Below, one piece after another: positions 1,215 through 17,600 of a stretch of DNA of 20,000 nt. Made by a program: the position numbers and the translations under genes. Source of the DNA: an uncultured virus (IMG/VR IMGVR_UViG_3300038755_000021) (Duplodnaviria > Heunggongvirae > Uroviricota > Caudoviricetes); IMG/VR virus record IMGVR_UViG_3300038755_000021, positions 52,080 through 72,079 of that record. The stretch is one strand, 5' to 3'. Each line of letters opens with the position of its first letter. The first letter of the stretch is position 1. A model generated the notes under the pieces. It ran no database searches. It was not told where the DNA came from and saw nothing but the letters and a program-made list of their open reading frames with translations.

Positions 1215-4200
1215 ATGAATGAAGAAATGGTAAAAGCCTTGTATGAAAAACTTGGCTTAAATGGAACTGTAGATTATGATAAATTTAGAACTGACATAGA
1301 GGGTAACCCAGCTATGCAAAAAGCTGTTTATGATAAATTAGGGTTACAAAATAAAAATGTTGATTATTCACAATTTGAAAAAGATTTAGGTGCCAATATT
1401 AGAACACCTTTACATGACTATGTTGCTGCATTAGAAAGTGATAATAATTATCAAGCATATAATCCAGATGGAGGAGGACAAGGTGCAGTAGGTGCTTATC
1501 AAGTAAGATATCAGAGTCATAACAAAAATGGTGATGTATCTAGAATAACTGGTACAAAAAATAGAGATGAATTTTATTCTGATTCTTATGCTCAGGATAA
1601 ATATATGTCTCATTTAATTGATCAATATCAACAACATCTTCCAGAACTTCAAAAGATAAATGAAGAAAGAGGATTAGGATTAAGTGATTGGGAATTGATG
1701 TATACAGAACATCATGAAGGTTATGATGGTGCTAAAAAATATCTATTAACTGGTACTTCAAAATTTGGTTCTGAAGAGACTTTAGATACAATGTATCAGA
1801 AAGGTAGGAAATATTTAGAATCAGGTGGACAAACATTAGCAACAAATAAAGGAAATGCATCTGCTCCAGTATCATCTTTAATATCCTTTGATACAGATGT
1901 AGATCAATCAAAATTTACAGATGAATTAGTTAAAAACCTTTATAAACAAAATGGGGGTAAAGGAGAAGTTGCACAAGCTGGTATACAAAAATATAATGGA
2001 CTTTTTGGTAAATATGACAATACTTATGCAATATCTGTAAGAGATACTTTAGGTGAAGATCATTTAATTAAATATGAAGATGTAGATTCTAGTTCTGATT
2101 TAGAAGGTGCGCAGAATAATTTAATAGAATTAGGTGGGGCCTTTGCAAATGGAATAGCTAAAGCAGGATTTCGTACTGTTGGATTATTAAAAGATCTTCA
2201 GGAATTAATTACTTCTGGAGATACTAGTTTAGATAAAGTATTTGATTATCAAGATAATCCTTTAACTAAAAAATTAACAGAAGCCTATAATACTAATATT
2301 GATCCCAGTCAATATTCTGATCAATATAAAAAATTATTAGAAGATCAGAAAATAGCAGAAGAAGGTGGGGATAGCCTTAATGCATTAGGTAAATCTTTAT
2401 CAAAAGTTTTTCATTCTGAATTCTGGAAAGACAATGGTTTAGAAACTGTTGGTAATTCATTATCCTTTTTTGTTCCAGGTGTTGTTGCAGGTAAAGCTGC
2501 TGGTGCTGCTGTAAAAGGAGCTAAGGCATTAGGTTTAGGAGAAAAGGGTACTAAAGTGTTAGCTCAACTTGGAGTTGGTGCAACTTTAAATGGAGCATTA
2601 GAAGCAGGTGCAGAAGGTGCTGAAACATTTAAAGCAGCATATGAGCACGGTATAAAAAAGGGTATGACAGAAGAAGAAGCTAGAGTAATGGCTTCTGATT
2701 ATGCTGCAGAGGTTGCCGCTACTAATATGCCAATATTAATGGCATCCAATGCTTTAGAGTTATTAGGAATTGGTGGAAAACTATTATCTGCTACGGGTTT
2801 AAAAAGATTTATTTACAATGCAGCAGCGACTGCTGTACCAGAAGGTCTTCAAGAAGGATTACAATTTGGTATTCAAGATAATGCTAAAAGATATGAAACT
2901 GAAAAATATGATCCAAATAAAGTTGGTCTTATAGATAACTTTTCTGGAGCAATGGGTGGAGCATTAAACTCTGCTTATAAAGGTTTAGTAAATGCTAGTT
3001 CAGAATTCTATGATAGCGTAGTAATGGGTGGATTAATGGGAGGAGCATTTGGAGCTCCTGGTGCTGCTAAATCTACATATGATTATTATAAAGTTGAAAA
3101 ACCTTTAGCTAAAGAAGTAAACTCTGTACTAGCTAATAGTTTTTCAGACATATATGAGAGAGATGCTGATGGTAATTTCATAGATGATAATGGAAAGATA
3201 AAAATAAATGGTTCTAAATTACAGTCACATCTTAATGGTTTACAAAATGAAAGATATTTAGCTGAGTTAGAATATCTTGCTGCTAAACAAGATAATGGTG
3301 AGGCAGTAAAGATGATACAAGGAAGTAAGATATCTAAAATTATACATGATTCTCTTGCATCTGGAAAAGATATAGACAATATTAAAAATGCAATAGATCA
3401 AGCATTTACTAAAGATGCTTATAAAGATAATAAACTAAAAGAACATTATTCTTTTGAAGAATATAAAGATTTTAGAAGCAATGCTGTAAAATTTTCAGAA
3501 GATGCATATAATGAAACATACTTTAATCCTCTATTAGCAAAACAAAGTGCAGGGTTTAAAGAAAATGTTTATTANNNNNNNNNNAATCTCTCTCAACAAA
3601 AAATGATTAATAATGAATTATCTAAATATAATTCTAAATTAGAGAGTCTTCCTGAAAAATTATCTCCACTTCAAAAATTAGAAAAAGAAGATCTTACAAC
3701 AAAGATTGAAGCAGTAACTAAATTCAAAGAGAATTTAGAAAGTGCTTATATTGATATTTTCAAAGGTGCTAAAAAAGATAAAAAAACTTCTCAAAAAGAA
3801 ACTAAAGCTGAAGAGCAAAAAATAGAAGTTAATCAAGGTTTACAAGAAGGTAAATCTCCAGAAGAAATTATCATAGATTCTGATAATCCAGAAGGAGCAG
3901 TAGATATATTACAAGAAGAAGCTAAAAAGAATACTTTAAATTCTCTTGATACTCTTAATTCTAAAAAAGAATATCAAGAAAAAGTTAGAACCCATCCTCA
4001 TTTGAGTAAAGAAATATCTGATCATTATAATTCTAGAATAGAAAAACAAAAATCAAATCAAAAAGAGATTAAGTCTGCTCAAGATTTAGTTGGAAGATAT
4101 GGAGAAGAAAATAGTCTATTAAAGGAACATGAAACAGATAATCTATTTTCTAATTTTAAAACTAGATTAGAAAATGAAGAAGGATTACAAGAAGAGATTA

Positions 4201-5522
4201 AGAATTATGAAACATTAAGAGATAATCCTAATCATACTTTTAAACCAAATCCTAAGTTTAAATTCTTAGGTCAACATATATTAGCTGGTGGAAATCTAGA
4301 TTCATATAGCTCTCTTTCAGCATTAGAACATAATATTGCTGATCCATTACTACAAGATAGTATTGATAACAAACCTATAAGTAAGACAAAAGAGGATAAG
4401 AGAAAGAATGCTAAAATATTAAAAGATAAACTAGTATCCTTACATAAAGAAGGTAAAGTCACCAAAGAAGAAGCTATTGGTTATATAGAAGAAGCTTTTG
4501 TTAATAATAAGATTACTAAAGCATCTAAAAATAAATTAATAGAAGATGTAAATACTCTTTTTGTTAAGAAGGATCCTAGAATACAACAGTTAATAGATTT
4601 AGGTTATTCAGAAGATCAAGCATTATTAGCTATTGAAAACGGTATTGCAGATGAAATAATATTAAAGAAGGGAAAATCTGATGTTTTATTTGAAGAAGGT
4701 CCTCCTATCATAACTCCTCTATTTATAGACACAGCTGTAGGTGCACAGGCTAGTAATCAAAATTTAGTACAAGTTGAATCTGTAACTCCAGATGGTAAGA
4801 AATCTTTACATACCATAAGTAAAACCATATTATTTGGTTCTAATGATATAGATGGTATGTGGTCTTCTTCTAAACAAGATATACTTTGTGATCATTTTAA
4901 AGTTCCTTTTGGATCTACTTTTAGAATAGTATCACAACCTTCTGCTTTCTATGAAAGTAATTTAGTTGAAACTAATAAAATTTTATCTACAGCAAAACCT
5001 GGAGATCAATTTTATTATGAAACAGATTATACTATATATAAAGATAAAAGTGATTTTGAAATCAATATAATATTTTATTCTAAAGATGGTAAAATAGTTA
5101 CAAAAGAAACTGAAGGATCTAAGAAACACACTGCTGGAGTTGTTAGAGCAAATAGTAATCCTGCATTAAATATTGATGAAGCAACAGAAATATCTAAACT
5201 AAGAGATAAACTTTTTACTGGAATTTCTACTACAATTCCTATAAAATTAAAATCAGTAATAAGAAAAGCTTCTTTGAATATAGGAAATTTAAGAGGGTTA
5301 ACTAAAGAAGAATCTAATAATGAGTTTGATGTTGTAATAGCAGAGTGGGAAGGTACAGTACCTAGATTTTCATCTAACCAGAGTGTTGGAGATACATATA
5401 GTCCAGCTGGAAAAGGAAGTATAAAAAGTTTTGTTCCAAGAATGATGGGTAAAGTATTCATGTTCCTAAAGTCTTGGGATAAGTCTGGTAATGAAAAAAA
5501 TATANNNNNNNNNNAGAATTAG
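1215..5522 (+). CDS. Giant virion protein, N-terminal part: lysozyme/transglycosylase-like domain + Gly/Ala-rich hydrophobic region + coiled coils (stop at 5520-5522 probably an artefact of the N gap)
   Basis: 1435-aa ORF with AALES-DNNYQAYN...GAVGAYQ motif at aa 71-96 and G/A-rich helices at ~2455-3070. The stop comes 5 nt after the gap at 5505-5514, while another frame is open from 5516. Confidence 0.8.
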   Translation: MNEEMVKALYEKLGLNGTVDYDKFRTDIEGNPAMQKAVYDKLGLQNKNVDYSQFEKDLGANIRTPLHDYVAALESDNNYQAYNPDGGGQGAVGAYQVRYQSHNKNGDVSRITGTKNRDEFYSDSYAQDKYMSHLIDQYQQHLPELQKINEERGLGLSDWELMYTEHHEGYDGAKKYLLTGTSKFGSEETLDTMYQKGRKYLESGGQTLATNKGNASAPVSSLISFDTDVDQSKFTDELVKNLYKQNGGKGEVAQAGIQKYNGLFGKYDNTYAISVRDTLGEDHLIKYEDVDSSSDLEGAQNNLIELGGAFANGIAKAGFRTVGLLKDLQELITSGDTSLDKVFDYQDNPLTKKLTEAYNTNIDPSQYSDQYKKLLEDQKIAEEGGDSLNALGKSLSKVFHSEFWKDNGLETVGNSLSFFVPGVVAGKAAGAAVKGAKALGLGEKGTKVLAQLGVGATLNGALEAGAEGAETFKAAYEHGIKKGMTEEEARVMASDYAAEVAATNMPILMASNALELLGIGGKLLSATGLKRFIYNAAATAVPEGLQEGLQFGIQDNAKRYETEKYDPNKVGLIDNFSGAMGGALNSAYKGLVNASSEFYDSVVMGGLMGGAFGAPGAAKSTYDYYKVEKPLAKEVNSVLANSFSDIYERDADGNFIDDNGKIKINGSKLQSHLNGLQNERYLAELEYLAAKQDNGEAVKMIQGSKISKIIHDSLASGKDIDNIKNAIDQAFTKDAYKDNKLKEHYSFEEYKDFRSNAVKFSEDAYNETYFNPLLAKQSAGFKENVYXXXXNLSQQKMINNELSKYNSKLESLPEKLSPLQKLEKEDLTTKIEAVTKFKENLESAYIDIFKGAKKDKKTSQKETKAEEQKIEVNQGLQEGKSPEEIIIDSDNPEGAVDILQEEAKKNTLNSLDTLNSKKEYQEKVRTHPHLSKEISDHYNSRIEKQKSNQKEIKSAQDLVGRYGEENSLLKEHETDNLFSNFKTRLENEEGLQEEIKNYETLRDNPNHTFKPNPKFKFLGQHILAGGNLDSYSSLSALEHNIADPLLQDSIDNKPISKTKEDKRKNAKILKDKLVSLHKEGKVTKEEAIGYIEEAFVNNKITKASKNKLIEDVNTLFVKKDPRIQQLIDLGYSEDQALLAIENGIADEIILKKGKSDVLFEEGPPIITPLFIDTAVGAQASNQNLVQVESVTPDGKKSLHTISKTILFGSNDIDGMWSSSKQDILCDHFKVPFGSTFRIVSQPSAFYESNLVETNKILSTAKPGDQFYYETDYTIYKDKSDFEINIIFYSKDGKIVTKETEGSKKHTAGVVRANSNPALNIDEATEISKLRDKLFTGISTTIPIKLKSVIRKASLNIGNLRGLTKEESNNEFDVVIAEWEGTVPRFSSNQSVGDTYSPAGKGSIKSFVPRMMGKVFMFLKSWDKSGNEKNIXXXXN
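1227..1388 (+). repeat. Tandem duplicated ~29-aa protein motif
   Basis: MVKALYEKLGLNGTVDYDKFRTDI versus MQKAVYDKLGLQNKNVDYSQFEKDL. Confidence 0.8.
1404..1823 (+). other. Lysozyme-like (lytic transglycosylase/muramidase fold) domain
   Basis: Putative catalytic Glu in ES (E74, nt 1434), then N-Y-x-A-x-N, A-x-G-x-Y-Q, 'EF..DSYAQD..M' and 'HHEG..GAKKYL', the motif order seen in phage lysozyme-like domains. Confidence 0.75.
3575..3584. other. Assembly gap (10 N), reading frame preserved
   Basis: Run of 10 n. Confidence 0.99.
5505..5514. other. Assembly gap (10 N), apparent frameshift
   Basis: Run of 10 n; the upstream frame is open into the gap and a different frame is open immediately after it. 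Confidence 0.99.
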
Positions 5523-7720
5523 AAACTAAAAAAGTTTCCGAAGTTCCTAGATTTAGACAGAATATATTAAATATATTAAAAAATGTAGAAGCTCAAAAAG
5601 ATGAAAAATCTGCTAAAGAAACATCTAAAGAGGCTTGGAAAGATGTTACAAAGATTGTAAGACTTAGAACACCAGATTCTAAATTTGATTCTGTAAATGT
5701 TAGTAAAGGTATAAAGGCTGGTATGACTAATCCAAGAAAAGGTGTTGGTCCAGTATTTACATATTTCTTTGAATCATCTCCGGGTAAACCAAAAGGTTTT
5801 CTTACTAAAAAAGATGGTAAAACATATAAAGGATTAAGTGCAGAAGAATTAGTTGAGTTGATAGAAGATCATAGAATTAATGTGCCACATGATAATGCTA
5901 AAGATTTCATAAACGATAACCCAGATGTATTATTAACAGATCTTGATGTAAATTCAACACAGGATAATCAGTTAGTATTTGATAATGATATAGAAAGTTT
6001 ATCAAATACACAAATAGATTCTGGTACCAGAGTTAATTCTAGAGCGAAACCTGTTAAGTTCAAAGTAACAGAGAGTTCTGAAAAAGAACAAAAAACTAAA
6101 GACTTATCTTATATTAAAGATAGATTTGCTAATCTTGGTATTGTAGTTTCAAATAAAGAATTAAATAAGTTAGCTGAAATATTTGGAGCTAATACTGGTA
6201 CAGTATGGGGAGCATTTCATGATGCAGTATTATTTTTAAATGAAAATGCTGGAATTAAGTTTCAGAAACATGAAGCGTTTCACGTTTTGTTTAATGTTTA
6301 TCTAACTCCTGAACAACAAAAAGTAGTATTAACAGAAGCTTATGATAAATTTGGAAAAGAATTAGGTATTAATAAAGAGGAATTTGAACAATGGTTAAAT
6401 AAACCTACAACTAACACTGCTAAATTTAAACAAGGAAATTTAAATGAAGTTGATTATATATTAAAAGCTGTAGATATTTTACAATCAGATAATGCTAAAC
6501 AAATATTTGAAAAAGGTAAAAAGAATAATTGGACTTTAGATAAAATATTAACAGAACTTAAAATACCTAAAGAACAAAAAGAATTATTATTAAATTTAAA
6601 TATTACAGATAGAGAACAGTTAGCTTTAGAATTAGCTAGTAATTATAGTTATACTGTTGAGATTAATACTGCAACAAAAAAGAAGTCTTCTCAAACTTTT
6701 GGTAAACCATATCAATTATTGGATAGTGAATTTCCTAATACTTGGCGTGTAGATACTGGTACATGGGCTATTGATTTTACAACAGAGGAGGAGGCATTAA
6801 ATTATATTGCTAGAAATAATAAGCAAGAAAATACTCAATATTATTCTAATATAACAGTTAATGAAGATTTTTATAAAAATAATCCTGATTGGGAATATAA
6901 AGAACAAAGAATAACTACACCATTAATTAAACCTTCTATTAAAGGTCATGCTCAATTTGCACAAGATAATGATATAGGTTGGTTTAGAGCTTGGTATAAT
7001 AAAAAAACAGGAGAGGTACATGTACTAGAAGTACAATCTGATTTATTTCAGAAAGGTAGAGATAAAGAATTTTTAGTAGATAATTATAAACATACTCCAG
7101 GAGATAGAAATTTTAATGTTACTTATGAAGGCAAGGAATATAAAGTTGGAACTATGGGGGGTATGCAAAGAGTTGTTATTTATAAAACTCTTGAAGGACA
7201 AGTGCATTATGAAAATCCAAAACAAGATTGGCTAACACAAGAAGAAATACCACAAGGACTAAAAGATATTGTATCTAATAAATTTAATAGTTTAAAACAG
7301 GAAGTATTAACTCAAAATAAATCTAATAAGGAGAATCAATTCCTACAACTTCTAAACAAAGACTCTAATTGGGTTACATTCTTTGTTAAATCTATTATAC
7401 AAGATAGTGCTAAGAAAGGTTATGAGAAAGTATTATTTCCTACTGGTAATACTGCAAGTAAAGTAGAAGGTCATACTACTTTAGAAGAGTTTAAGAAGCA
7501 AAAAGAAGATAGGATTAAGGAGCTTGAAGGTAAATTAGATACTTTAAATACATTAAAACCTAATGAAGATTTATCACCTATTACTTTTAAGCTAGGTAGT
7601 AGTAATGAAACTTTTTATTATAAAAATAAAGGATTTGAACAAGCTTTAAAAACTTATAAAGAACCATTTGAAAAAGAAATAAAACAACTTAAAGAGGAAC
7701 TNNNNNNNNNNAAAGAGTAG
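5516..7720 (+). CDS. Giant virion protein, middle part: zincin metalloprotease N-half (HEAFH) plus inserted 'LEVQSD' module
   Basis: The frame of ORF 5723..7720 is open from 5516 (ELETKKVSEVPRFRQNIL...KAG-M). WGAF at ~6206, HEAFH at 6269-6283. The stop at 7718-7720 lies just after the third gap. Confidence 0.8.
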   Translation, partial: ELETKKVSEVPRFRQNILNILKNVEAQKDEKSAKETSKEAWKDVTKIVRLRTPDSKFDSVNVSKGIKAGMTNPRKGVGPVFTYFFESSPGKPKGFLTKKDGKTYKGLSAEELVELIEDHRINVPHDNAKDFINDNPDVLLTDLDVNSTQDNQLVFDNDIESLSNTQIDSGTRVNSRAKPVKFKVTESSEKEQKTKDLSYIKDRFANLGIVVSNKELNKLAEIFGANTGTVWGAFHDAVLFLNENAGIKFQKHEAFHVLFNVYLTPEQQKVVLTEAYDKFGKELGINKEEFEQWLNKPTTNTAKFKQGNLNEVDYILKAVDILQSDNAKQIFEKGKKNNWTLDKILTELKIPKEQKELLLNLNITDREQLALELASNYSYTVEINTATKKKSSQTFGKPYQLLDSEFPNTWRVDTGTWAIDFTTEEEALNYIARNNKQENTQYYSNITVNEDFYKNNPDWEYKEQRITTPLIKPSIKGHAQFAQDNDIGWFRAWYNKKTGEVHVLEVQSDLFQKGRDKEFLVDNYKHTPGDRNFNVTYEGKEYKVGTMGGMQRVVIYKTLEGQVHYENPKQDWLTQEEIPQGLKDIVSNKFNSLKQEVLTQNKSNKENQFLQLLNKDSNWVTFFVKSIIQDSAKKGYEKVLFPTGNTASKVEGHTTLEEFKKQKEDRIKELEGKLDTLNTLKPNEDLSPITFKLGSSNETFYYKNKGFEQALKTYKEPFEKEIKQLKEEXXXXKE
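7702..7711. other. Assembly gap (10 N), apparent frameshift
   Basis: Run of 10 n; ...KQLKEE(L) before the gap and RVETEGFGALKPIY... after it in the RNAP frame. Confidence 0.99.
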
Positions 7721-10700
7721 AAACAGAAGGATTTGGTGCTTTAAAACCTATTTATAATTTCTATGAAAATACTGTAACAAACATTCTTAATAAAACATAT
7801 GGTAAAGATAATGTAAAACTTATTACTGATGAATATGGTAATACTTGGAATGAAATAACAATCAATGAAAAATCTTTAGATACAATACGATTATCAACAA
7901 AACAAAACAGTTTCTATCAAAAACAAAATCCACTAGTAAGATTAGAAGAAAAACTAGCAGAAATGTTTGAAGACTTTTCTGTTGAAAATGTTGGTATTGT
8001 ATCTTCTGAATTTAAAAAAGCATACCCAGAGATATCTAAATTCTTTGATGAAATCTATAAATTTATATATGATGTATACAGAAGATTAAAACCTTATTTC
8101 ACAGATAAACTATCAATACAAGATATATTTTATCAACTAGAAAAGAATACATTTAATAAGAAGATATTTAATGAAAGATTAACTTCTTATCAAAAATTAT
8201 CTCAATATACTCCTAAATTTAAAATAGATACATTAAACCCAATAGAGGTTAAAAGATATTCCAGGTTTATTGCTACAGATACTCTAGAACAAGCTTTATG
8301 GAAATATGAAGCTACTAATGTAAATGGAGAGATTAAATCTAAATATGGCTTCTTAAATGATTTAACAAAGGTTAAAAGAAATGAATTCTTACAAGATTTT
8401 ATTGATAAACTTGATACATTAGTTGCTAATCATTTTAAAGAATTAGGTAATCCTGAAGTTGGTGCAAAGATCAGTGAAACATTAAAGTCTAATAAAGTAG
8501 AATTTTTAAAGTATATCTTACAAGATATAAATACTCTATATGATACTCATTATTATATGGAGGAAACAGAAGAAGATGGGGAAAAGATTAATCTAATTAG
8601 AGAGACAAATGTAAATCCAACGCAAAACATAAAGGGTAAACTAAAGGAGTATTTACATAGAATTCCTATCAGAACAAAAGTTAATGGACAATACCAAGAG
8701 GTTATAGATGAAGATTTTGGTATTGAGAAAAGACATGACTTTGAACAAGTATATAATAGATTATTACAGGGATTATCTGATAATCCTACTCCAGAAATGT
8801 TCTGGGAGAAACTTCAAGATTTAGCTACTAAATTTGATTGGGCTGATCATGTAAATGAACATATTAAAGCTACATTTATAGATAGCCCAATAGAGTCTGA
8901 GTTGTTTAGAGTCTTATATGCTAAGACTGGGGGTATGAGAAATATTAACTTTATTTCTGAAACAAGAAAGAAAGGTAGCTCTAAATTTTTTGAAGCAGGT
9001 AAAAGAAATGTTGCTAATGAATTAATAGGACTATTATCTGAGAAATTTGATAATGGAGAAGCAGATGTAGCAGAGTTAAAAAAGCTAAAAGATACAGTAA
9101 AAGATGGTAAACTTTCTGAAAAAGATATATATCCATTATTAACTAATTTTGGATTTGATATAACTGAAGATGAAGCTAGTTATCTATTTTCAGAGGATAA
9201 ACATAATATACAAACATTCTTTAATTTTCTAGTTAAAAATATTGATGATAAAAATTTTCATCCTTTTAGATCAAGAGACAATGAGTTAAATAAGATATCA
9301 AGAAAGATGGCAAATTTAGTTGCTAAATTACCTTCTAAACATACAATGACAGTATTAACTGTTAAAAATGAAAATGAATATATACATCAAGCAAATAACT
9401 TTGTTTCTAAATTCTTTGCTAAACTAAAAGTTAATTCTCAAGAGTTATATAATAGAGCACAAGGTTCTTTAATTCATGAAGGTATTTCACTTTATAATAG
9501 TCTTACTGGACAACAGTTTAGAGATAAGTTTAATATTCAATATGATTTAGGGTTTAAAGAAGCTGGAAGAGGTGATGGAGTAGAATATAAAGAGTATTTA
9601 TTTTCAGATTTATTAACACACGATTTTAATGCATATCTTACTCAGGTAGCAGAAGATAAAAGGATTAGAGTACCATTGCCTACATTTTCTGATGCAACAA
9701 GTAGAGCTTATTTAGTTGCTCCTTCAAAATCAGATGTAGAAAGATTAACTGTTCCATTAGTTAAAGCAGAAATGGAAAGGATTAAATATTGTAGAAAAAA
9801 TAAAACTGGTTATAGAAACTTTGATATTAATGGTACACACTTTGTTATATTTCCTTTTTTAGAGAAATATAGTAAAACATTATTTAATACTAATCCTGAT
9901 TTATTAGATGATTACATTGAAGGTTTATTAAAAGATCATATATCAGATAGAATAAAATTATATACTGATACTTTAGTAAAAGAAGGAGTATTAGAATATG
10001 TAGAAGATAAAGATAAACATTTAGTATTAACTCCAACTGATAATGTTGCTAAGAACCTTATTAGTGGAAAGAGTTTAAAACTTGTTATTGAGAAGTATTA
10101 CAAAAATCGTTGGTTTTATAATAATCAATTAATACCTATGTTAGCAGGTGATCCTGCATTTTATGGTAATTATAAATCATCTAAAAGTAAATATGATTAT
10201 AAGAAAATATCAGATTCATTATTAAAGAGGATGAAGGAATTACACTCTCCTAAAGAGGATGCAATCATTGTTGATGATAATAATAATCCTAAAACTATAA
10301 GACAATTAGTAATTGCTGATATATTTAAAGACTCCTCAGAAGAAGAGATAGCTGAATTTAAACAGATATTTCCAGGTTTAAAATGGGAAGGACATAACTT
10401 AACAGATGGTCAAGGTATTACTACTTTAGATTTTAATAGACAAGTAAGAAGTGCTTATGGTGAATTAAATAAAGAAGACTTAGCAGAATATGAAAAGATA
10501 AAAGCTGGTAAGCATGGAAAAACAACTCCTGGATTTACAAAACCTTATTATTATAATCTAGAAACTAGAGATAATCTTTTATATCCTTTACAAGAAAAAA
10601 GCTCTGAATTTCCTTTAATTCCTGCTGAAGCATTCCTTACTAAGAATGGTAAAGTTGAATTCCCAGGAAGTCCAACTGACTTTAATAAATATGCTAGACC

Positions 10701-13700
10701 AATATTAGCTAAAATGTTATGGTTAATGAATGGTGCAGGTGATCCAAATAGAGCATTTGATAAAATAGTATTTGAATCTGTTATTAAAACAGATATCAAT
10801 GAGAAAAAGTTATTATCTATAGATGATATTAATAATTTAGATTTTAAGAAAGTATATTCTTCAATAGAAGAACACTCAGCCGCAGATTATGGTAGACAAC
10901 AAGTTGTACCAACTGATAAACATTATAATAATAAACAGAAATATGGTTCTCAAGCTAGGGTTTCTATAACAGCAGATTTAAATGAAGATGTTGTAGTTAA
11001 TGGTAAAAGTTATACTCCAGCAGAAATTAGAGAGTTACATGACTCTATTTTAGTTGCAAATATTGAAGATTCAAAAGATAAACTTAAAACTAAATTTGCA
11101 AATTTAGATTCTTTTATTAAAGTATTACGTGAAGGAGCTGTAAACAGAAATAAGTCTGTTGATCAGTTAATGGCTTATGAAATACAAGAAGATGGTTATC
11201 CTGCAGTACCAATTGATTATCCTTTGACATCAGTAGAAAATCAAAAATTAGCAAATGCTGAAACAAAGAAAGCTATTATTACACCTGTTCCTGGTGGAAC
11301 ATTTGTAAATAGATCTTCTATAGGTTATGCAGACGATTTAGAAGTAAAAAGAGTTTATAAAAATGGTGTTGCAGTAGCTATTGAATATGTAGAAGTAGCA
11401 ATCCCTGCACATAATAGTGCCTTATTACTATTAGCAGATAAAAATGGTGTAATTGATTTTAAAAAACTAAAAGAAGAATATCCTAATTTTGACAAACTAT
11501 TAGAAGGATTTGGATATAGAATTCCTACAGAGGATAAATATTCAATGTATCCTATAAGAATTAAATATCTTCTTCCTCAAAATACAGATGCTACAATTGT
11601 TCTTCCAAAAGAAGCTCCTACCATTACTGGTTTAGACTTTGACGTAGATAAGATGTTTGTAATGTTTAGAGCCTTTAAAATTAAGAAAGGTAATTTCTCA
11701 ATGTTTACAAAGTCTATTAATGATTATGCTATACAACATAATCTATTAAAAGAAAATGGAGAACCAGTTATATATTCTGAAGAGGAAGCAAGGGATCTTT
11801 TTAATAAAATGTTAATAAATGAACAGTCTAAAACTGAGACTGAAAGGATCTTGATAGATTATATGAAACAAGATTTTAATGAATTAAAAAATCTTATTAA
11901 GATTGAGGAATTAGGATATATAGAACCTAGTATGGATAATACATTATCCAGGCATAATCTTATGATGGATATTATTTTAGCAATTACAAAAACTGAGTCT
12001 TATGCTAAATCATTTCTTGAAGGTGGTAATTCAGATGTATTAGTAGAAAATATTGAAAGATTAAAAGATTTTCCATTAGATAAAAATATTCCAGAGGATG
12101 TAATTGATCCTTTACACCAGGATTATAATTCAAAAAAGGCTATTGTAGGAGGTAATATTATTGGTATTGCTGCTTCACATAATAAACATCATTTTGCAAT
12201 TCAAGGTCAACAATTTAGTTCTCTAAATCCATTAAATTTTTTAGATGGAAAAACATATCGGAGTTTAACAAAACAAGAAGGAGTAGATGGTAGGATATCT
12301 AAATTCATATCTTCAATATTATTTGCTTCTACAGAACATATTAAGAAACCTTTATTAGATCAATTAGGTATAACAGCTCAGAATGTTTCTATATTCATTA
12401 CAGGATTAAGATTGGGAATACCTTTTAGTGAACTTTCTACATTATATAGAAATCCTGCTGTAATAGATTTATTTAATGGTTTAAGTAAAATAAAATTTCC
12501 TACAACTAGAGATTTTGATAATTATATCCGTGATACATATGAATTAGATACTAAATCTATGGGATGGTTTAGAAGTTTAGAAACTCAAGATTTATCTAGT
12601 AAACAATTATTAGAGTCACTTTCTAATAATAACCATGATTTAAATTTAGTAATTTTATCAAAATTACGTACATTATTTGATATTTCAGTTGATTTAGGAG
12701 CAGTAATGAGAGCTGGTAAATTTGATACTGAAGATAGCTTTGGTCCATTATTATATGATAATTTAAAATCTGTAGGTGATATAGAATATATATATAAGAA
12801 AATTAAAGCTAATAAAATATCCTTAAGTGGTATTGAAAATATTTTACCAAACATAGGTGTAGTTGATGATAAATATGTAATGACTCCAAGTAATTTAAAA
12901 CTTAATGATGCATATATATCATTGATTGTGCAACAATTAAATGGATTAAAATCTATATTTGGATTCTTATCTGAAAACTATAACGTGGTAACAGATAAAG
13001 TCTTAGAAGTAACTGGTTTAGAAAGATTTGATGTCAAAAAGTTACAAACTGTACATAATGCTGTTAGAACTGCTATTGCACAACATGTATTAAAGTTCTC
13101 GCATAAAAATGTAGTACAAGTAAATAAAGAGTTTAAGAAAATCAAAAAAGATAAAGTATTTAATGAAAAATATCCTAACTTAATAAAGTTAATAGATATA
13201 AGATCTATAAGAGGTCAGGCTGTTATACAAAAAATAACTCCTTATAAAATTGATAAAGGTACTACGTCTTTAATTAAATCAGAATGGGCAACAGCAATGG
13301 CTGATCCTGTATATTCAGAATTTGCTAGAAATTTAGCAACATATTCTTTGATTACATCTGATTTCTCATTTAGAAAAAATTCTTTTTCTCAATTTGTGCC
13401 TGAATATGAATATTTAACAGGTACAGTTGAAGGTAAAAGAGTTAGGGAGTATTTTAATAAAATTGCAGATGTAACAGCTTTTACAAAAGAAGAGGATGGT
13501 GATTTAGCATTGTTAATAATCCAAAACAAACCTGAACTTACTAGATATATAGATGTAGATAAAGATGCAGATACTGTAGAAAGCTTTAGAATATCTACTG
13601 GAGAAACTTCTTCAGTGCACGTAAAGAATATAATTAAATTAAAAGGTAATGCTAGTGGATACACTAAAGCAAATAGTGAAGAACCACTAGAATATATCCA

Positions 13701-14382
13701 TACTACAGTCTTTTATTTACATAGGAAAGTTCCAATACTTTATAAGTATAATGGTGATAGTGTATATGAAATGGTAATACTACCATCTAATCCTCTTTTA
13801 TATTCTGTATATACTAAAGAAACTGAAGTATTTTATCCACTATTAAAAGTAAATAAAGTTGAAGATAGGGATTTTACTAAAGATAAAGAGTATGAAATGG
13901 GTCCAAGTAAAGAAATGGTAGATGATGGTTTTTTTGTGGATGAACTTGGTGCTACTGATAAAGAACCTGATTTTAGTGATGTTAATGATTTTACAGATGA
14001 GATGGGAGCTACTGATATTAATGATATAATTAATGCAGCAGAAAAGAGTGGTGTTCCTACTAAGATTGTAGATGGATTCTTTACTGAAGAAGAGAGTGCT
14101 CCTGAATCATATTATGAAATAGATCAATATAAAATCAGAATTACACCAGATGGTAAAATGTATTTTAAAAATGGCGAAGAGGTAACTGATACTACAATAC
14201 AAAATAAAGTTTTAGTACAAAAAGAGAGTAAAGAAAAAACAGCTAAAACCTCACATTATAACAAAACAGATTATGTAATATTATCAGATGGTAGAATAAT
14301 ATCTACTGCTAATTTTCAAGAAAAGACCTTCACTGAGCAAGTAAGAACTTTTATTATTAAGAATGCTAAAAAAATGTGTTAA
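7714..14382 (+). CDS. Virion-packaged DNA-dependent RNA polymerase, crAss-like/phi14:2 gp66 family (C-terminal part of the giant gene)
   Basis: 2139-aa ORF whose frame is open from 7714. TDGQG at 10402-10416, GYRIPT at 11512-11529, catalytic DFDVD(K) at 11635-11649, matching the DFDID variant of the two-barrel RNAP DxDGD loop known from crAss-like phages. Confidence 0.92.
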   Translation, partial: RVETEGFGALKPIYNFYENTVTNILNKTYGKDNVKLITDEYGNTWNEITINEKSLDTIRLSTKQNSFYQKQNPLVRLEEKLAEMFEDFSVENVGIVSSEFKKAYPEISKFFDEIYKFIYDVYRRLKPYFTDKLSIQDIFYQLEKNTFNKKIFNERLTSYQKLSQYTPKFKIDTLNPIEVKRYSRFIATDTLEQALWKYEATNVNGEIKSKYGFLNDLTKVKRNEFLQDFIDKLDTLVANHFKELGNPEVGAKISETLKSNKVEFLKYILQDINTLYDTHYYMEETEEDGEKINLIRETNVNPTQNIKGKLKEYLHRIPIRTKVNGQYQEVIDEDFGIEKRHDFEQVYNRLLQGLSDNPTPEMFWEKLQDLATKFDWADHVNEHIKATFIDSPIESELFRVLYAKTGGMRNINFISETRKKGSSKFFEAGKRNVANELIGLLSEKFDNGEADVAELKKLKDTVKDGKLSEKDIYPLLTNFGFDITEDEASYLFSEDKHNIQTFFNFLVKNIDDKNFHPFRSRDNELNKISRKMANLVAKLPSKHTMTVLTVKNENEYIHQANNFVSKFFAKLKVNSQELYNRAQGSLIHEGISLYNSLTGQQFRDKFNIQYDLGFKEAGRGDGVEYKEYLFSDLLTHDFNAYLTQVAEDKRIRVPLPTFSDATSRAYLVAPSKSDVERLTVPLVKAEMERIKYCRKNKTGYRNFDINGTHFVIFPFLEKYSKTLFNTNPDLLDDYIEGLLKDHISDRIKLYTDTLVKEGVLEYVEDKDKHLVLTPTDNVAKNLISGKSLKLVIEKYYKNRWFYNNQLIPMLAGDPAFYGNYKSSKSKYDYKKISDSLLKRMKELHSPKEDAIIVDDNNNPKTIRQLVIADIFKDSSEEEIAEFKQIFPGLKWEGHNLTDGQGITTLDFNRQVRSAYGELNKEDLAEYEKIKAGKHGKTTPGFTKPYYYNLETRDNLLYPLQEKSSEFPLIPAEAFLTKNGKVEFPGSPTDFNKYARPILAKMLWLMNGAGDPNRAFDKIVFESVIKTDINEKKLLSIDDINNLDFKKVYSSIEEHSAADYGRQQVVPTDKHYNNKQKYGSQARVSITADLNEDVVVNGKSYTPAEIRELHDSILVANIEDSKDKLKTKFANLDSFIKVLREGAVNRNKSVDQLMAYEIQEDGYPAVPIDYPLTSVENQKLANAETKKAIITPVPGGTFVNRSSIGYADDLEVKRVYKNGVAVAIEYVEVAIPAHNSALLLLADKNGVIDFKKLKEEYPNFDKLLEGFGYRIPTEDKYSMYPIRIKYLLPQNTDATIVLPKEAPTITGLDFDVDKMFVMFRAFKIKKGNFSMFTKSINDYAIQHNLLKENGEPVIYSEEEARDLFNKMLINEQSKTETERILIDYMKQDFNELKNLIKIEELGYIEPSMDNTLSRHNLMMDIILAITKTESYAKSFLEGGNSDVLVENIERLKDFPLDKNIPEDVIDPLHQDYNSKKAIVGGNIIGIAASHNKHHFAIQGQQFSSLNPLNFLDGKTYRSLTKQEGVDGRISKFISSILFASTEHIKKPLLDQLGITAQNVSIFITGLRLGIPFSELSTLYRNPAVIDLFNGLSKIKFPTTRDFDNYIRDTYELDTKSMGWFRSLETQDLSSKQLLESLSNNNHDLNLVILSKLRTLFDISVDLGAVMRAGKFDTEDSFGPLLYDNLKSVGDIEYIYKKIKANKISLSGIENILPNIGVVDDKYVMTPSNLKLNDAYISLIVQQLNGLKSIFGFLSENYNVVTDKVLEVTGLERFDVKKLQTVHNAVRTAIAQHVLKFSHKNVVQVNKEFKKIKKDKVFNEKYPNLIKLIDIRSIRGQAVIQKITPYKIDKGTTSLIKSEWATAMADPVYSEFARNLATYSLITSDFSFRKNSFSQFVPEYEYLTGTVEGKRVREYFNKIADVTAFTKEEDGDLALLIIQNKPELTRYIDVDKDADTVESFRISTGETSSVHVKNIIKLKGNASGYTKANSEEPLEYIHTTVFYLHRKVPILYKYNGDSVYEMVILPSNPLLYSVYTKETEVFYPLLKVNKVEDRDFTKDKEYEMGPSKEMVDDGFFVDELGATDKEPDFSDVNDFTDEMGATDINDIINAAEKSGVPTKIVDGFFTEEESAPESYYEIDQYKIRITPDGKMYFKNGEEVTDTTIQNKVLVQKESKEKTAKTSHYNKTDYVILSDGRIISTANFQEKTFTEQVRTFIIKNAKKMC
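13921..14100 (+). repeat. Acidic low-complexity linker with short internal repeats
   Basis: DELGATD / DEMGATD and DGFFVDE / DGFFTEE repeats in a D/E-rich stretch. Confidence 0.7.
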
Positions 14383-14650: not shown

Positions 14651-17600
14651 ATGGATAAAACCAGAAAATCTGTAAACTTCAAATTAGAGAAATTCATAAA
14701 GGAAATGTTATCTAAGTTAGGAGTATCTGTTAAAAACCTAGATGAATTTAAAATAAGATATAAAGAGAAAACAGGTAAAGATATATCTGTAGTATCTGTT
14801 GCTGATATATTTGAAAACATAATATATATAGCAAATGATAAAAGAGATGGTACTACTTTATCTGAAGAAGCAATGCACTTTATTGTGGATATGTTTTGGG
14901 ATAACCCTCTTATCCAGGATATATTAACATTATCTTCTGATGGAGTAAATCTTGACTATCAAAAAACAGAAACATATGAAGAAGTGTTTGTTCTTTATAA
15001 TAAGATGTATAAAGGAGATCAAACTAAAATAAATAAAGAAGTAATTGCTAAATTATTAGCAAGAACAATATATGATCAATTTTATAAACAAAGTAAAACA
15101 ACAAAAATATTAAAAGCTTTAGAAAGAATTTTAAGATTATTTTTAGGTAGAGTTTTTAGAAATATAAGATTAACAAGAGAAATAACTCCTGATGGAATTA
15201 CTGATCAATTAAATCAGTTATTAGATAGAAAAGTAACTGATATCAGATCAGAACCATTTAATACAGGATTATCTGCAAGATTAAAAACAGAAGGTAATGT
15301 AGCTGTACCAGAATCTAACTTTTCAGAGAAAGCAATTTTAAAACTTATTAAGTATTTGAAATCTAGGAAGAAAAGTTATTTAGAAGAGAAGACTGGTTTA
15401 TATGATGAGATATTAAAAAATAGAGCAGTTAAATTAGTTAACTTAATAGGAAAAAAGAAATTAAATGAATATATAGATATGTTGGCTGCATTAAGAGCTA
15501 ATCCTAATCCTACTCCTCTAGAACAAGTAAGAATTGATGAATTAAAAGAATTAATTAATCTTGTTAAGATGGATGCTAGAGATGCAGCAAATATACAAAG
15601 GATTGAAAAAATTGATAAATCTTTAGCTTTATTAAATGCTCAAGTAAAGAAACATAACTTTGAAGCTGGTATATTTATGTTTTTCTTTGGTCCAGATGGT
15701 ACAGGAGAAGGTGGAGCAATAGAAGATATTGATAATGTTATGAAGGCAATTGATGGAATTAAAAATCCTGATCCAAATAAACCAATAGTATTTGACTTAG
15801 AATTATATGCTAAAATAGTGCAGTCTTCTTCTATATATGGACCAATGATAAAGACCTTAAATGATTTATATCATGGTGGATTTACTTTTTCAGAATTATC
15901 TGCAGAGAATAATAAGAAATTAAAAGAAACATTATCTACTCTTAAAGTAAATAAAATAGATAACATTGAAAGATTTTTGGTTTCTCAAACTACTACCCAA
16001 TTAAAAAACTTATTTGCAGAGTATCAAGATATAAATCCTCAGTTAAAATATAGAATGCAGGATGAAGTTATTAAGTTATTTAATACTGGAGCATTAGCTT
16101 ATCAATGGGGTGCAGCACAAGGAGCTAAAGAAGATACTCTTGGTATATTTAATAAAATGATATTTGATATACAAAATAAAATACACAGATTAACTAATGA
16201 AACTGGAGTAGACTTATGGAATAAAATAAAAGATTTATCTGTAAATTATAAAGACTTAATGCAAGGTCATTATTGGTTAAATCCTTTTAATATTACAAAA
16301 TGGGAAAAAGCAAGAGAAGAAGCTTATGTTGGTATTATTGCAAAAACAGAAGCATTTTCTAAATCAAAAGGTTTTAATATAAAAATACCAAAAAACAGTG
16401 CATTAAGAGATGAATTATTTGCTGCTGCAAGTTTTGAAAATTCTGAAAATTTATCTGCTTATCAAGTTCATATTAAAGCTTTACATGCTTATTACAATAG
16501 ACAATGGAGAAATTGGTTTAATAAGAATACTCAGGTACATCCTGATTTAACTAATATAATAAAGAGAAAGCAATCTTCTATGAACAAAGCTCAATTTGAG
16601 TTTTGGAAATCTAAAAATATAAAAACTTCAACATATTTAAATGAAGATGGAGAGCTAATTGAAGATACATATTATACTGGTGAACTTTCAGTACCATCTT
16701 CTGGTAAAAATGGTACAGTAGATTATACAGATCCTAACTTTGAAAAACTAAGAACAGAACAACCAGATGCATTTAAAGTTCTACAATTATTAAAAGAACA
16801 ACATCTTAAAGCTCTAGAGAAAGTTCCTGGATATATGAGTTATGAGATAATGAATAGATTACCACAAATAACACAAACAATATCAGATATTGCATATAGA
16901 GGATTTGGAGATGTTAAGGGTATAGGAGATAAGATTACAGATCCATTTATGGATAAAGTAGATGATCCATTACATGCTGAAAGAGAAGATATATTTGGTA
17001 CAGAACAAATTGTAGAGAGGCCAGCAATTAAATATATATCTAAAATTGAACACCCTGAAGCTATTAGTGCTGATTTATTTAGAACAGTATTATTATTTAC
17101 AGAGATGTCAAATAACTATACTGAATTCATGGCTAAACTTCCAGAATTAAATGGTATAATAGAAGTTGTAAGAAGAGCTGAAAGAGTAGAGCCATTGGGT
17201 ACTGGTAAACCAGATTATCTTACAGATAAATTTGAACAATTAAAAAGAAGACATGTTCAAGGTGAAATCTTTGAAACTAAACATAAAGGTTTAACAAAAG
17301 TATTACAAACACTAAGACAATATATCATATCTAGGAACTTGAAAGGAAATATGGTTTCTGTAATGGTGGGTTATGTATCAGGACAAATTGAAAGTTGGAT
17401 TGAGAAGTTATTAGGTGTACATGTTAATAGAGATACCTCTGCATTTAAAGAGTTTGTTAAAAATGCTCCACAAATGTTATTAGATTTTAATTCTCCAAGT
17501 AAAAAATCTAAAGTAGCAGTTATAATGCAAGATATGGGATTATTAGATTCCATTGAATTCTTATTTGAACATACCAATGAAAATGCAATATTAAGAAGTG

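Follow-up and report, generated by a model that had tools for sequence, protein, structure and literature searches.

The giant ORF and its surroundings

The window, meaning the whole 20,000-nucleotide stretch of DNA that was analysed, contains a giant open reading frame in which a module of predicted acetyltransferase fold is placed between an HEAFH region and an RNA polymerase. The main features are the following, with residue numbers (q10, H178, E205 and so on) counted along the translation of window:6416-7701 and those of the C-terminal block prefixed with c.

1215..14382, + strand: giant ORF of ~4,380 aa, assuming read-through of three 10-N masks
3575-3584, 5505-5514 and 7702-7711: the three masks (runs of ten N); the last lies inside the module and is flanked by different reading frames
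6269..6283, + strand: HEAFH (HExxH), ~50 residues upstream of the module and outside it
6428-7878, + strand: module of predicted acetyltransferase fold, ~490 aa, a single domain split by the 10-N mask
6428..7699, + strand: module part before the mask, q5-q428, as matched by phmmer against 1.84 billion representatives
7714..7878, + strand: C-terminal conserved block, c1-c55, RVETEGFGALKPIYNFYENTV...ITDEYGNTWNEITI, assigned to alpha4-beta6-beta7
11635..11649, + strand: catalytic motif DFDVD of the crAss-type virion RNA polymerase, which shares the giant ORF with the module

Using tblastn, positions 7909-14379 matched 93 crAss-like phage records with E values down to 2e-32, among them Bacteroides and Cellulophaga phages and several entries annotated as "putative RNA polymerase", while TerL, portal and major head protein PHROGs were found upstream on the contig. 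Judged by its sequence, the giant ORF is a crAss-type virion RNA-polymerase polyprotein of an uncultured crAss-like phage, and the locus has the makeup of a crAss-like virion RNA-polymerase cargo block. The preprint by Drobysheva et al. (10.1101/2020.03.07.982082) describes the DFDxD motif of this polymerase, reports that the phi14:2 enzyme gp66 is packaged in the virion and translocated into the host, and mentions its fusion with neighbours into a polyprotein in some phages; PMC10172136 likewise presents the three polymerase-associated giant proteins of crAss001 virions as cargo. The window resembles the gp67-gp66-gp65 block of phi14:2 and gp47/gp49/gp50 of crAss001 in the giant virion proteins that surround a DFDxD RNA polymerase, in the zincin-type HExxH neighbour and in the single-polyprotein fusion seen in some phages, but it differs from phi14:2 by the module itself, which is absent from gp65-gp68 (profile search with all filters off, E of at least 2). 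By analogy, the window protein would be packaged and ejected as well. The first-pass annotation had placed the module in an injected protein, and that proposal gains part of its support from the virion polymerase in the same ORF and from the packaging and translocation described for its relatives.

The HEAFH sequence may mark a zincin-type metallopeptidase site of the kind seen in gp65; its region has no Pfam match, and no Pfam MPTase or LPD model was found in the window protein. Among relatives, 16 polymerase ORFs that carry no module have an HExxH 1151-1507 aa ahead of DFDxD, and in one locus (L050) where the module follows DFDxD the distance is 1489 aa. The window ORF joins the HExxH region, the module and the polymerase. 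Among 80 related loci, by contrast, 55 have the module at the head of the ORF that follows the polymerase; a motif-based count placed it downstream of the polymerase in 57 and upstream in 8 of the 65 determinable loci among the 80. Among the best 150 of 797 representatives, it starts anywhere from residue ~13 to residue ~4220 of proteins of 304-6106 aa. The suggestion that the module is mobile and swapped between giant proteins agrees with this lack of a fixed position, but it was overstated, given the one placement that prevails in 55 of the 80 loci.

Extent, conservation and distribution of the module

Against a profile of 475 positions built from 142 intact homologous modules, the part before the mask scored 413.8 bits over positions 5-405 (local hmmsearch) and the C-terminal block 92.6 bits over positions 408-471. 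The latter block was detected in 158 of 248 homologs (phmmer, whole-sequence E<=0.01) and adjoins the module in those of the 158 that were inspected. Since the two pieces are contiguous in intact homologs (in P0058 the first extends to residue 734 and the second from 737 on), the mask conceals only a few residues, and the module presumably runs on across it in the window phage. The N run and the frame change both fall inside 6420..7895, the span described in the first-pass annotation, which mentions neither.

The blocks go well past what chance would give: the phmmer search of the 1.84 billion representatives gave 797 matches at E<=1e-3, with 682 still at or below 1e-10 and 372 at or below 1e-30. 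By sequence similarity, the motif blocks are one strongly conserved domain family, large and confined to phage or phage-like contigs. Neither of two tblastn queries detected the module in any of the 50,697 deposited phage records, and at this sensitivity no cultured phage carries it; 185,579 species genomes yielded just 13 MAG contigs, whose taxon labels are discordant, and there it was not encountered as a solo cellular enzyme. It is an accessory of uncultured lineages. No sequence match to the module was obtained in Pfam, PHROGs, NCBIfam or PDB. Moreover, no Pfam LPD family was found for the window protein or for the homologs P0134, P0156 and P0013, nor any LPD among the 25 most frequent Pfam families listed for 39 core sequences; the comparison covers the Pfam LPD models only, and the module may equal one of the LPDs of Iyer et al. 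2017 that are absent from Pfam.

All seven blocks quoted from the letters alone are present, and they share one frame as far as the mask and a second frame beyond it. Together with the segments between them, they are arranged as follows.

6443..6676, + strand: conserved N-terminal strand and five-helix sub-domain, q10-q87, "NNWTLDKILTELKIPKEQK...YSYTVEINT"
6677..6832, + strand: variable region 1, q88-q139
6833..6991, + strand: block YYSNITV...NYxE...PSIKGHAQF...IGWFRA, q140-q192, with invariant Y161, E163, H178, G188 and R191
6938-6958, + strand: conserved block IKGHAQF
6974-6991, + strand: conserved block IGWFRA
7007..7069, + strand: strand beta4 and the short helix after it, q198-q218, VHVLEVQSDLFQKGRDK, with invariant E205, Q207, S208 and Q212
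7022-7060, + strand: conserved block VLEVQSDLFQKGR, which includes LEVQSD exactly at 7025-7042, as first noted
7070..7327, + strand: hypervariable insert 2 (beta4-alpha3), q219-q304, a small beta-sheet in the window model
7328..7474, + strand: helix alpha3 and strand beta5 block, q305-q353, NQFLQLLNKDSNWVTFFVKSIIQDSAKKGYEKVLFPTGNTASKVEGH, with invariant W319 and P342
7367-7447, + strand: conserved block NWVTFFVKSIIQDSAKKGYEKVLFPTG
7460-7474, + strand: conserved block KVEGH
7475..7699, + strand: hypervariable insert 3 (beta5-alpha4), q354-q428, a long helical hairpin in the window model
7750-7776, + strand: conserved block IYNFYENTV, after the mask
7828-7854, + strand: conserved block DEYGNTWNE, after the mask

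In 204 unique intact modules, eleven positions are 100% conserved: eight counted as polar or aromatic (Y161, E163, H178, R191, E205, Q207, S208 and Q212) together with G188, W319 and P342; about 30 further positions are conserved in at least 97%. The pattern H...R...E-x-QSD, which the first-pass annotation likened to one in large phage polyvalent proteins, is a genuine one, its H178, R191, E205, Q207 and S208 being invariant and D209 conserved in 99.5%. Within the beta4 and short-helix segment D209, K213 and R215 each reach at least 98%, and "FY" (c16-c17) in the C-terminal block 99%.

The loops between the blocks, described as apparently variable, proved to be so. Across 156 unique modules the spacing is constant from KGH to GWFR (9 residues) and from NWVTFF to FPxGxT (22 residues), whereas the three inter-block loops measure 16-194, 37-163 (E-x-QSD to NWVTFF) and 19-394 residues (FPxGxT to FYE), so that rigid core segments are interleaved with three hypervariable loops whose lengths vary more than tenfold. 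Some loops contain entire nested ART or kinase domains; in P0019 and P0251 a complete AAA_33/Zeta-type kinase domain lies within the N-terminal half of the module, presumably inserted precisely at variable region 1. The survey of protein contexts that had been proposed found effector-type domains beside or inside the module in homologs, namely ART-PolyVal, Zeta/AAA_33 kinase, His_Phos_1 (histidine phosphatase) and PD-(D/E)XK.

Predicted fold

The GNAT fold is a mixed alpha/beta fold of the order beta1-alpha1-alpha2-beta2-beta3-beta4-alpha3-beta5-alpha4-beta6(-beta7). The AF2 model of P0134, an intact minimal homolog modelled with an alignment of 115 sequences, runs beta-helices-beta...beta-beta-alpha-beta-alpha-beta-beta and matches this topology, with core-block pLDDT mostly 80-97 (10-residue block means) and dips to 43-72 in variable stretches. 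In the predicted model, the N-terminal sub-domain corresponds to GNAT beta1-alpha1-alpha2-beta2 plus extra helices; its pLDDT in the window's own model is 91-98 over q21-q70, and the VIA alignments of the homolog model begin at the strand equivalent to the N-terminal strand of the module. Foldseek against PDB with the P0134 model gave 29 named acetyltransferases or GNATs among the 33 matches listed (best E 0.024, probability up to 0.99), and the three structure searches, performed with two different aligners, returned nearly one superfamily only, aligning 110-150 residues of domains of 130-190 residues. GNATs were also among the weak Foldseek matches of the window's own model, truncated by the mask, and the BFVD matches comprised viral GNATs and giant uncultured-phage proteins. 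We predict that the module adopts the GNAT (Gcn5-related, acyl-CoA N-acyltransferase) fold, with the DfoC acetyltransferase domain (5O7O), AAC(6')-Ib (1V0C), SpeG and the AtaT/TacT toxins as the nearest solved structures. Invariant polar residues on a predicted enzyme-superfamily fold agree with the enzyme-like character first proposed, and a function that could not then be named is narrowed by modelling to a GNAT-like acyl-transferase fold.

Like the members of this superfamily, the module has an invariant acidic residue on beta4, and the conserved Tyr that opens its alpha4 (FYE) compares by eye with LYES of RimI-type GNATs; E205 on beta4 (100%) and Tyr c17 in alpha4 (99%) are candidate catalytic residues. 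Unlike them, it has no detectable sequence similarity to the superfamily. No GNAT Pfam match was found for the window protein (E<=0.1) or for three other full-length homologs (E<=1e-3), nor any GNAT among the 25 most frequent Pfam families listed at E<=10 for the 39 core sequences; PF00583 (Acetyltransf_1) had no match in the phage contig at E<=10 and was positive in 14 of 14 control genomes. A PDB profile search with the module gave nothing relevant, hhalign against a narrow RimI profile gave a probability of 0.1%, and a pairwise alignment with RimI did no better than shuffled sequences, of which 27 in 300 attained its score. The module further departs from GNATs in its five N-terminal helices, against two, and in the extra inserts of 16-194 and 19-394 residues.

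Another difference concerns motif A, the Q/R-x-x-G-x-G/A pyrophosphate-binding loop that joins beta4 directly to alpha3 in GNATs. The beta4 and short-helix segment sits at its place (comparison with E. coli RimI by eye), yet the canonical motif is missing, the segment after beta4 being the invariant S-D-L-F-Q-K-G-R-D with one Gly retained. Because motif A is replaced by the invariant QSDLFQKGR and a 37-163-residue insert at the CoA-pyrophosphate site of GNATs, CoA use by the module is doubtful.

A possible role at infection

Polyvalent proteins of the phage type combine several unrelated effector or enzyme domains in a single giant chain, typically together with a zincin-like peptidase, and are predicted to be packaged. 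According to Iyer, Burroughs, Anand, de Souza and Aravind 2017 (PMC5512222), GNAT domains are a recognised effector class in phage polyvalent proteins, which presumably accompany the DNA into the host; the two families described there are RimI-like, were detected by sequence and occur in gammaproteobacterial prophages and conjugative elements. The same paper presents T4 Alt as an injected ADP-ribosyltransferase that is stored in the head, delivered with the DNA and modifies proteins. Our module resembles these polyvalent-protein GNATs as an acetyltransferase-fold domain in a giant multi-domain protein with ART neighbours, but it is undetected by the Pfam GNAT and LPD models and lies on crAss-like phage contigs beside a two-barrel RNA polymerase. 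The proposed likeness to Alt is that of a head-stored protein-modifying enzyme delivered with DNA; fold and chemistry are unrelated, and the packaging and activity of Alt were shown experimentally, whereas the module is known from sequence and models.

The predicted acetyltransferase fold and the seat in a polymerase-carrying giant protein suggest that the module is probably an enzyme that enters the host cell when the phage infects, and we give about even chances to its being, more specifically, an injected acyl-transferase effector; the host-takeover or anti-defence role proposed in the first-pass annotation is hypothetical. In such an effector, Y161, E163, H178 and R191 would lie on beta2/beta3 of the GNAT core; beta4 would end in E205-V-Q207-S208-D209, followed by LFQKGR at the place of the GNAT pyrophosphate loop; NWVTFF...VLFP would form alpha3-beta5, IYNFYE alpha4, with its Tyr at the place of the RimI-type general acid, and TDEYGNTWNE beta6-beta7. 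Two of the three hypervariable stretches, the beta4-alpha3 and beta5-alpha4 links, would flank the donor/acceptor cleft of GNATs; the third would be the turn between beta3 and beta4. Packed in the capsid alongside the polymerase, the module would be ejected into the host, refold there and acylate a host or phage target, the donor probably being acetyl-CoA or a different acyl-CoA. Catalysis would take place at E205, the QSD turn, H178 and R191, and the choice of target would depend on the variable loops.

Some GNAT folds are non-catalytic, such as the acetyl-CoA-binding C-terminal domain of M. tuberculosis ICL2 and ornithine decarboxylase antizyme. The module could similarly be a ligand-sensing, regulatory or docking domain that controls a zincin-type peptidase, polyprotein processing or polymerase activation on reaching the cytoplasm, which we consider somewhat unlikely. 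The canonical CoA loop, absent and broken by large inserts, would fit such a role, as would its position as the N-terminal head of a cargo protein in the 55 loci and an HExxH within 200 aa in 33 of the 80 loci (29 after the module, 4 before; in the window ~50 aa before). Yet no HExxH occurs within 200 aa in the other 47, the structural neighbours are for the most part active transferases, and the 11 invariant and ~30 near-invariant positions cluster on beta2-beta4 and the beta4 turn in an active-site-like manner. A catalytic module might also dispense with acyl-CoA, with aminoacyl-tRNA (as in FemX and L/F-transferase) or acyl-ACP (AHL synthases, toxin-activating acyltransferases) as its donor, or a nucleic acid as its acceptor (phage Mu Mom). 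We regard this as improbable, even though the conserved K213, R215 and often K217 of the post-beta4 loop could hold the phosphates of another donor, and the invariant H and R may be similar to the His/Asp/Arg sites of acyl-ACP-dependent GNAT-fold enzymes.

The GNAT assignment might itself be a prediction artefact, the module being another enzyme (e.g. a metal-dependent hydrolase or nuclease in which H178, E205 and D209 act) or a purely structural cargo domain. The models have a mean pLDDT of 72-76 and a pTM of 0.47-0.58, and the window protein shows a weak sub-threshold Pfam match to ParBc_2 (E 0.072). However, that match falls in a hypervariable insert, the order of secondary structures fits the GNAT topology, and the two aligners converge almost exclusively on one superfamily with the core mostly at pLDDT 80-97, which makes an artefact very improbable.

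Perhaps the module is no ordinary acetyltransferase and its conserved GNAT-derived core serves as a platform. The three cleft-flanking loops, with their wide range of lengths and, in some lineages, complete ART-PolyVal or Zeta-type kinase domains nested in them, would then be the site of diversification that re-aims an invariant core at different host targets, or the core would act as an acetyl-CoA-type sensor of arrival, activating the neighbouring peptidase or polymerase once ejected. This idea is speculative and we hold it to be unlikely. If true, the module would be a programmable injected-effector scaffold of a new kind, specific to environmental crAss-like phages.

A module of fixed blocks and variable loops

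The contig of which the window forms the final 20 kb is a linear IMG/VR virus contig of 72,079 bp (CheckV completeness 59%; GC 28.6%), with a large terminase, a portal and a major head protein further upstream (PHROGs 6681, 6547 and 11589). The terminase ORF, located outside the window at G000:C1:16270-19428 and 1,052 aa long, is matched by terminase PHROGs in separate pieces (residues 1-143, 282-544 and 633-1037) and may hold an insertion, for instance an intein or an endonuclease. Within the window, a giant frame-hopping ORF is otherwise open apart from three N masks, and a fourth run of exactly 10 N lies at 28002-28011 of the contig.

Features of the giant ORF and its surroundings (window coordinates, strand as presented)
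1215-14382: giant ORF
3575-3584: run of exactly 10 N, frame kept
5505-5514: run of exactly 10 N, one-base shift of frame
6269-6283: HEAFH motif, about 50 residues N-terminal of the module
7702-7711: run of exactly 10 N, one-base shift of frame
7909-14379: region matching crAss-type virion RNA polymerase
11635-11649: DFDVD motif
14651-18772: next ORF

Either the masks are not length-preserving or genuine frameshifts are hidden beneath the second and third ones, and since the frame shifts at both, we infer the continuity of the encoded protein of about 4,380 residues. At its N-terminus (1215-1700), a faint likeness, below the cut-off, to an "aggregation-promoting factor C-terminal-like" domain is seen (NCBIfam E 0.022, residues 68-131), a family which we take to be kin of cell-wall hydrolases; this end could be the wall-cutting head of a polyprotein. 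The giant ORF ends with a cysteine (...NAKKMC, 14368-14382), and so does P0134 (...TKKC), a homologous protein. In Cellulophaga phage phi14:2 (L085) gp65 starts with MSC, gp66 starts with MAC and gp67 ends with ...TIC, and the window's next ORF starts with MDKTRK, with no N-terminal cysteine.

The seven peptide blocks that the first-pass annotation had read in this ORF are all present, LEVQSD lying at exactly 7025-7042; the third mask, which the annotation had missed, cuts through its interval. Searching the piece before this mask (window:6416-7701, 428 aa) with phmmer against 1.84 billion cluster representatives retrieved 797 proteins at E<=1e-3, of which 682 reach E<=1e-10 and 372 reach E<=1e-30, and the matched proteins range in length from 304 to 6,106 residues. 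The stretch following the mask (RVETEGFGALKPIYNFYENTV...DEYGNTWNE) was present in 158 of the 248 fetched homologs (phmmer, whole-sequence E<=0.01) and is directly C-terminal of the first piece in the homologs inspected, with a gap of two residues in one of them (P0058). A profile of 475 positions was built from 142 intact modules; the part of the window before the mask matches its positions 5-405 and the part after the mask its positions 408-471, which puts the domain at about 6428-7878. Modules have a median length of 498 residues, the shortest being about 346.

Across 204 unique intact modules, Y161, E163, H178, G188, R191, E205, Q207, S208, Q212, W319 and P342 are invariant (residue i of window:6416-7701 begins at nucleotide 6416+3(i-1)), and about 30 more positions are at least 97% conserved, among them D209, L210, F211, K213, R215, N318, Q329, D330, Y336, T346, E351 and the FY of IYNFYE. 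When spacings between seven anchor motifs were measured in 156 unique modules, KGH to GWFR and NWVTFF to FPxGxT were constant at 9 and 22 residues, whereas GWFR to E-x-QSD ranged over 16-194, E-x-QSD to NWVTFF over 37-163 and FPxGxT to FYE over 19-394 residues. Because of this conservation and these fixed and wide-ranging spacings, both the alternation of conserved blocks with variable loops and the H...R...E-x-QSD pattern, as proposed from the sequence alone, are correct.

Predicted fold of the module

Comparison of the window protein with Pfam, PHROGs, NCBIfam and PDB sequences (including phmmer against the PDB) gave nothing relevant, and a PDB profile search gave noise only. No precomputed Pfam domain lies on the module in any of the 240 homologs listed, and scanning 39 core sequences against Pfam at E<=10 yielded, among the families listed, coiled-coil-type noise only. 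The Pfam model PF00583 for GNATs, the acyl-CoA N-acyltransferase superfamily, had no match in the contig at E<=10 and was positive in 14 of 14 control genomes. ESM Atlas returned unnamed viral clusters only (scores 0.83-0.85) and, for the core, no usable named match. Against RimI, an E. coli GNAT, hhalign gave two module alignments a probability of 0.04-0.12% with a profile so narrow (all sequences at least 80% identical, Neff 1.4) that the test is weak, and the pairwise alignment was no better than chance, as 27 of 300 shuffles were equally good. Readings as a SAM-methyltransferase (VLFPTG as motif I), as an ART (from the H/R...E pattern) or as a ParB-like nuclease (Pfam ParBc_2, E 0.072, the match sitting in a variable insert) found no support in the fold searches and were rejected.

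The AlphaFold2 model of the window piece (121-sequence alignment; mean pLDDT 76, pTM 0.47) had no significant Foldseek match in the PDB, about a quarter of the weak rows being GNAT acetyltransferases, and its wide VIA-align search was dominated by a helical hairpin (q352-428) and uninformative. P0134, an intact homolog of 532 residues without two of the long inserts, was folded from a 115-sequence alignment having 20 invariant columns, including H, R and E-x-QSD-LFQ-x-x-R. In the core blocks of its module (residues 157 to 480), pLDDT by 10-residue block is mostly 80-97, with variable stretches down to 43-72, and the elements follow the order beta, five helices, beta, extra strands, beta, beta, beta, short helix, long helix, beta, helix, beta, beta. 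Three structure searches with this model agree on GNAT-type proteins. Foldseek with the P0134 model against the PDB gave GNAT-type names for 29 of the 33 matches listed (best E 0.024; probability up to 0.99). In the wide VIA search, 13 further rows had titles naming no fold, including ICL2/Rv1916, LasI, phage Mu Mom and antizyme (several of them GNAT-fold proteins), and one row aligned outside the module; in BFVD, three uncultured-phage giants at E<=1e-3 were followed by viral GNATs and "large polyvalent protein associated" proteins. All these scores are middling by the tools' own grading, and the GNAT fold carries weight because the matches are near-uniform in family and cover whole domains, not because of the scores.

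The conserved blocks can be placed on this fold from the secondary structure of the window-piece and P0134 models. IGWFRA would be beta3 and VHVLEVQSD beta4, followed by DLFQKGR as a predicted short helix at the position of the CoA pyrophosphate loop; NQFLQLLNK..NWVTFFVKSIIQDSAKKG would be alpha3, KVLFP beta5, PIYNFYENTVTNILNK alpha4, and ITDEY and TWNEITI beta6 and beta7. The stretch "LEVQSDLFQKGR" is a candidate counterpart of GNAT motif A and "FYE" of motif B, yet the canonical GNAT motif Q/R-x-x-G-x-G/A is absent from the module. By eye, "V-Q-S-D-L-F-Q-K-G" of the module resembles "V-D-P-D-Y-Q-R-Q-G" of RimI and "F-Y-E-N" resembles "L-Y-E-S", likenesses to which neither hhalign nor the pairwise alignment lends statistical support. 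While GNATs lead straight into alpha3, the module carries an insert of 37-163 residues at the same place, and two of its three hypervariable sites would lie beside the GNAT donor/acceptor-binding cleft.

Placement beside the virion RNA polymerase

Judged by its sequence, the region at 7909-14379 codes for a virion RNA polymerase of the crAss type. With it, tblastn retrieved 93 phage records, all below 60% identity and with E down to 2e-32 (22-24% identity among the 15 matches listed); crAss-like phages of Bacteroides and phages of Cellulophaga are among them, and several records carry the annotation "putative RNA polymerase". The protein gp66 of phi14:2 is described as a virion-packaged, translocated RNA polymerase, its neighbors gp65 (zincin-like) and gp67 as virion proteins, and counterparts of the three as fused into one polyprotein in some phages (10.1101/2020.03.07.982082). 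Similarly, gp47, gp49 and gp50 are reported as cargo of the virions of the crAss-like phage crAss001 (PMC10172136). By analogy with these two phages, the window's protein would be delivered into the host.

The module was found neither by tblastn with two different queries in 50,697 deposited phage records nor by profile in phi14:2 gp65-68. Scanning 185,579 species-representative genomes with two peptide patterns only, which diverged copies would escape, gave 13 loci (L087-L099), all on MAG contigs no longer than 104 kb and labeled Saccharibacteria, Woesearchaeota, Promethearchaeia, Omnitrophota, Clostridium, Neisseriaceae and others. As the contigs are short and their taxon labels discordant, they are most likely mis-binned phage DNA and not cellular genes; beyond them, the two-pattern scan found no solo cellular version.

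Arrangement in the 80 IMG/VR loci fetched, classified by motif and not by homology (number of loci)
DFDxD ORF ending just upstream of a module-headed ORF: 55
Both in one ORF, module on the N-terminal side of DFDxD (the window's layout): 7
Both in one ORF, module on the C-terminal side of DFDxD: 2
Module at the end of the ORF preceding the polymerase ORF: 1
Module split across two ORFs: 2
No call (motif missing or contig end): 13

In L034, L046, L054 and L073 the module-headed ORF continues as a homolog of the window's next ORF, the polymerase homolog being the preceding ORF; in L083 the same continuation is seen, with a polymerase ORF that phmmer did not pick up. From these layouts it follows that the module moved between neighboring giants and that gene order was not reshuffled. 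The HEAFH-to-DFDxD distance, about 1,788 residues in the window against 1,151-1,507 in 16 module-less polymerase ORFs, is consistent with insertion of the module. By phmmer, the window's polymerase part matched 5 ORFs among the 80 loci, the next ORF 6 and the HEAFH part 1; the module is the best-kept part of these giant proteins. The split modules are those of L052:835-9018 and L082:3-5524; in L052 the first ORF holds profile positions 5-321 and a later one 313-471, with a 672-aa ORF in between.

Within 200 residues of the module, an HExxH motif follows it in 29 of the 80 loci and precedes it in 4; the other 47 have none at this distance. In eight loci (L006, L021, L050, L062, L063, L077, L079 and L081) a HEYAH motif is located 27-28 residues past the module end, which points to a second zincin-like domain, fixed immediately downstream of the module, in one sub-lineage.

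Other domains were surveyed in seven homologs with a Pfam domain. A complete ART-PolyVal is nested in the module of P0022, between alpha4 and beta6, and P0019 and P0251 each have a complete AAA_33/Zeta-type kinase within the module's N-terminal half; the loops of the module tolerate entire inserted domains. Immediately N-terminal of it are an ART-PolyVal in P0171 and a histidine phosphatase in P0187, and elsewhere in the protein a Zeta-type kinase in P0086 and a PD-(D/E)XK nuclease in P0311. Such neighbors would be the company expected of injected effector ("polyvalent") proteins, as these are portrayed in PMC5512222.

Possible roles and significance

The reading we favor, to which we give about an even chance, is that of a GNAT-fold acyl-transferase effector travelling with the virion RNA polymerase, in which a conserved catalytic core would be combined with target-dependent loops. 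Against it stand the missing CoA loop, the lack of a sequence link to GNATs and the middling structural scores. Perhaps, and with distinctly lower probability, the module catalyzes nothing and is a GNAT-like sensor or docking domain linked to the adjacent peptidase or polymerase; that it is a transferase with a different donor, or with a nucleic-acid acceptor, appears unlikely. An erroneous fold call we regard as very improbable, the structural matches being so near-uniform in family.

GNAT domains of polyvalent proteins are already known, and PMC5512222 presents them as RimI-like and recognizable by sequence. The module differs from them in that it is not in the libraries searched, its cofactor region is remodeled, its insertion behavior is unusual and it is tied to a crAss-type polymerase block. 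It was set apart from the large polyvalent-protein-associated domains (LPDs) of Iyer et al. through Pfam models, and it may equal an LPD outside Pfam. No description of it was found in literature on crAss-like phages, virion RNA polymerase and acetyltransferases, and "acetyl" has 0 occurrences in the crAss001 atlas paper (PMC10172136).

The family defined here, which comprises about 800 clusters at 50% identity and has no entry in Pfam, PHROGs or NCBIfam, has been assigned a predicted fold. It offers a few invariant residues suited to mutation, expressible domain boundaries and a natural series of loop and nested-domain variants. Crassvirales, which rank with the most abundant phages known, have giant cargo proteins that largely lack annotation. 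If the module is an active transferase of the kind we favor, it would be a new injected host-modifying enzyme alongside the virion RNA polymerase; as a sensor or scaffold, it would bear on the activation of ejected polyproteins.
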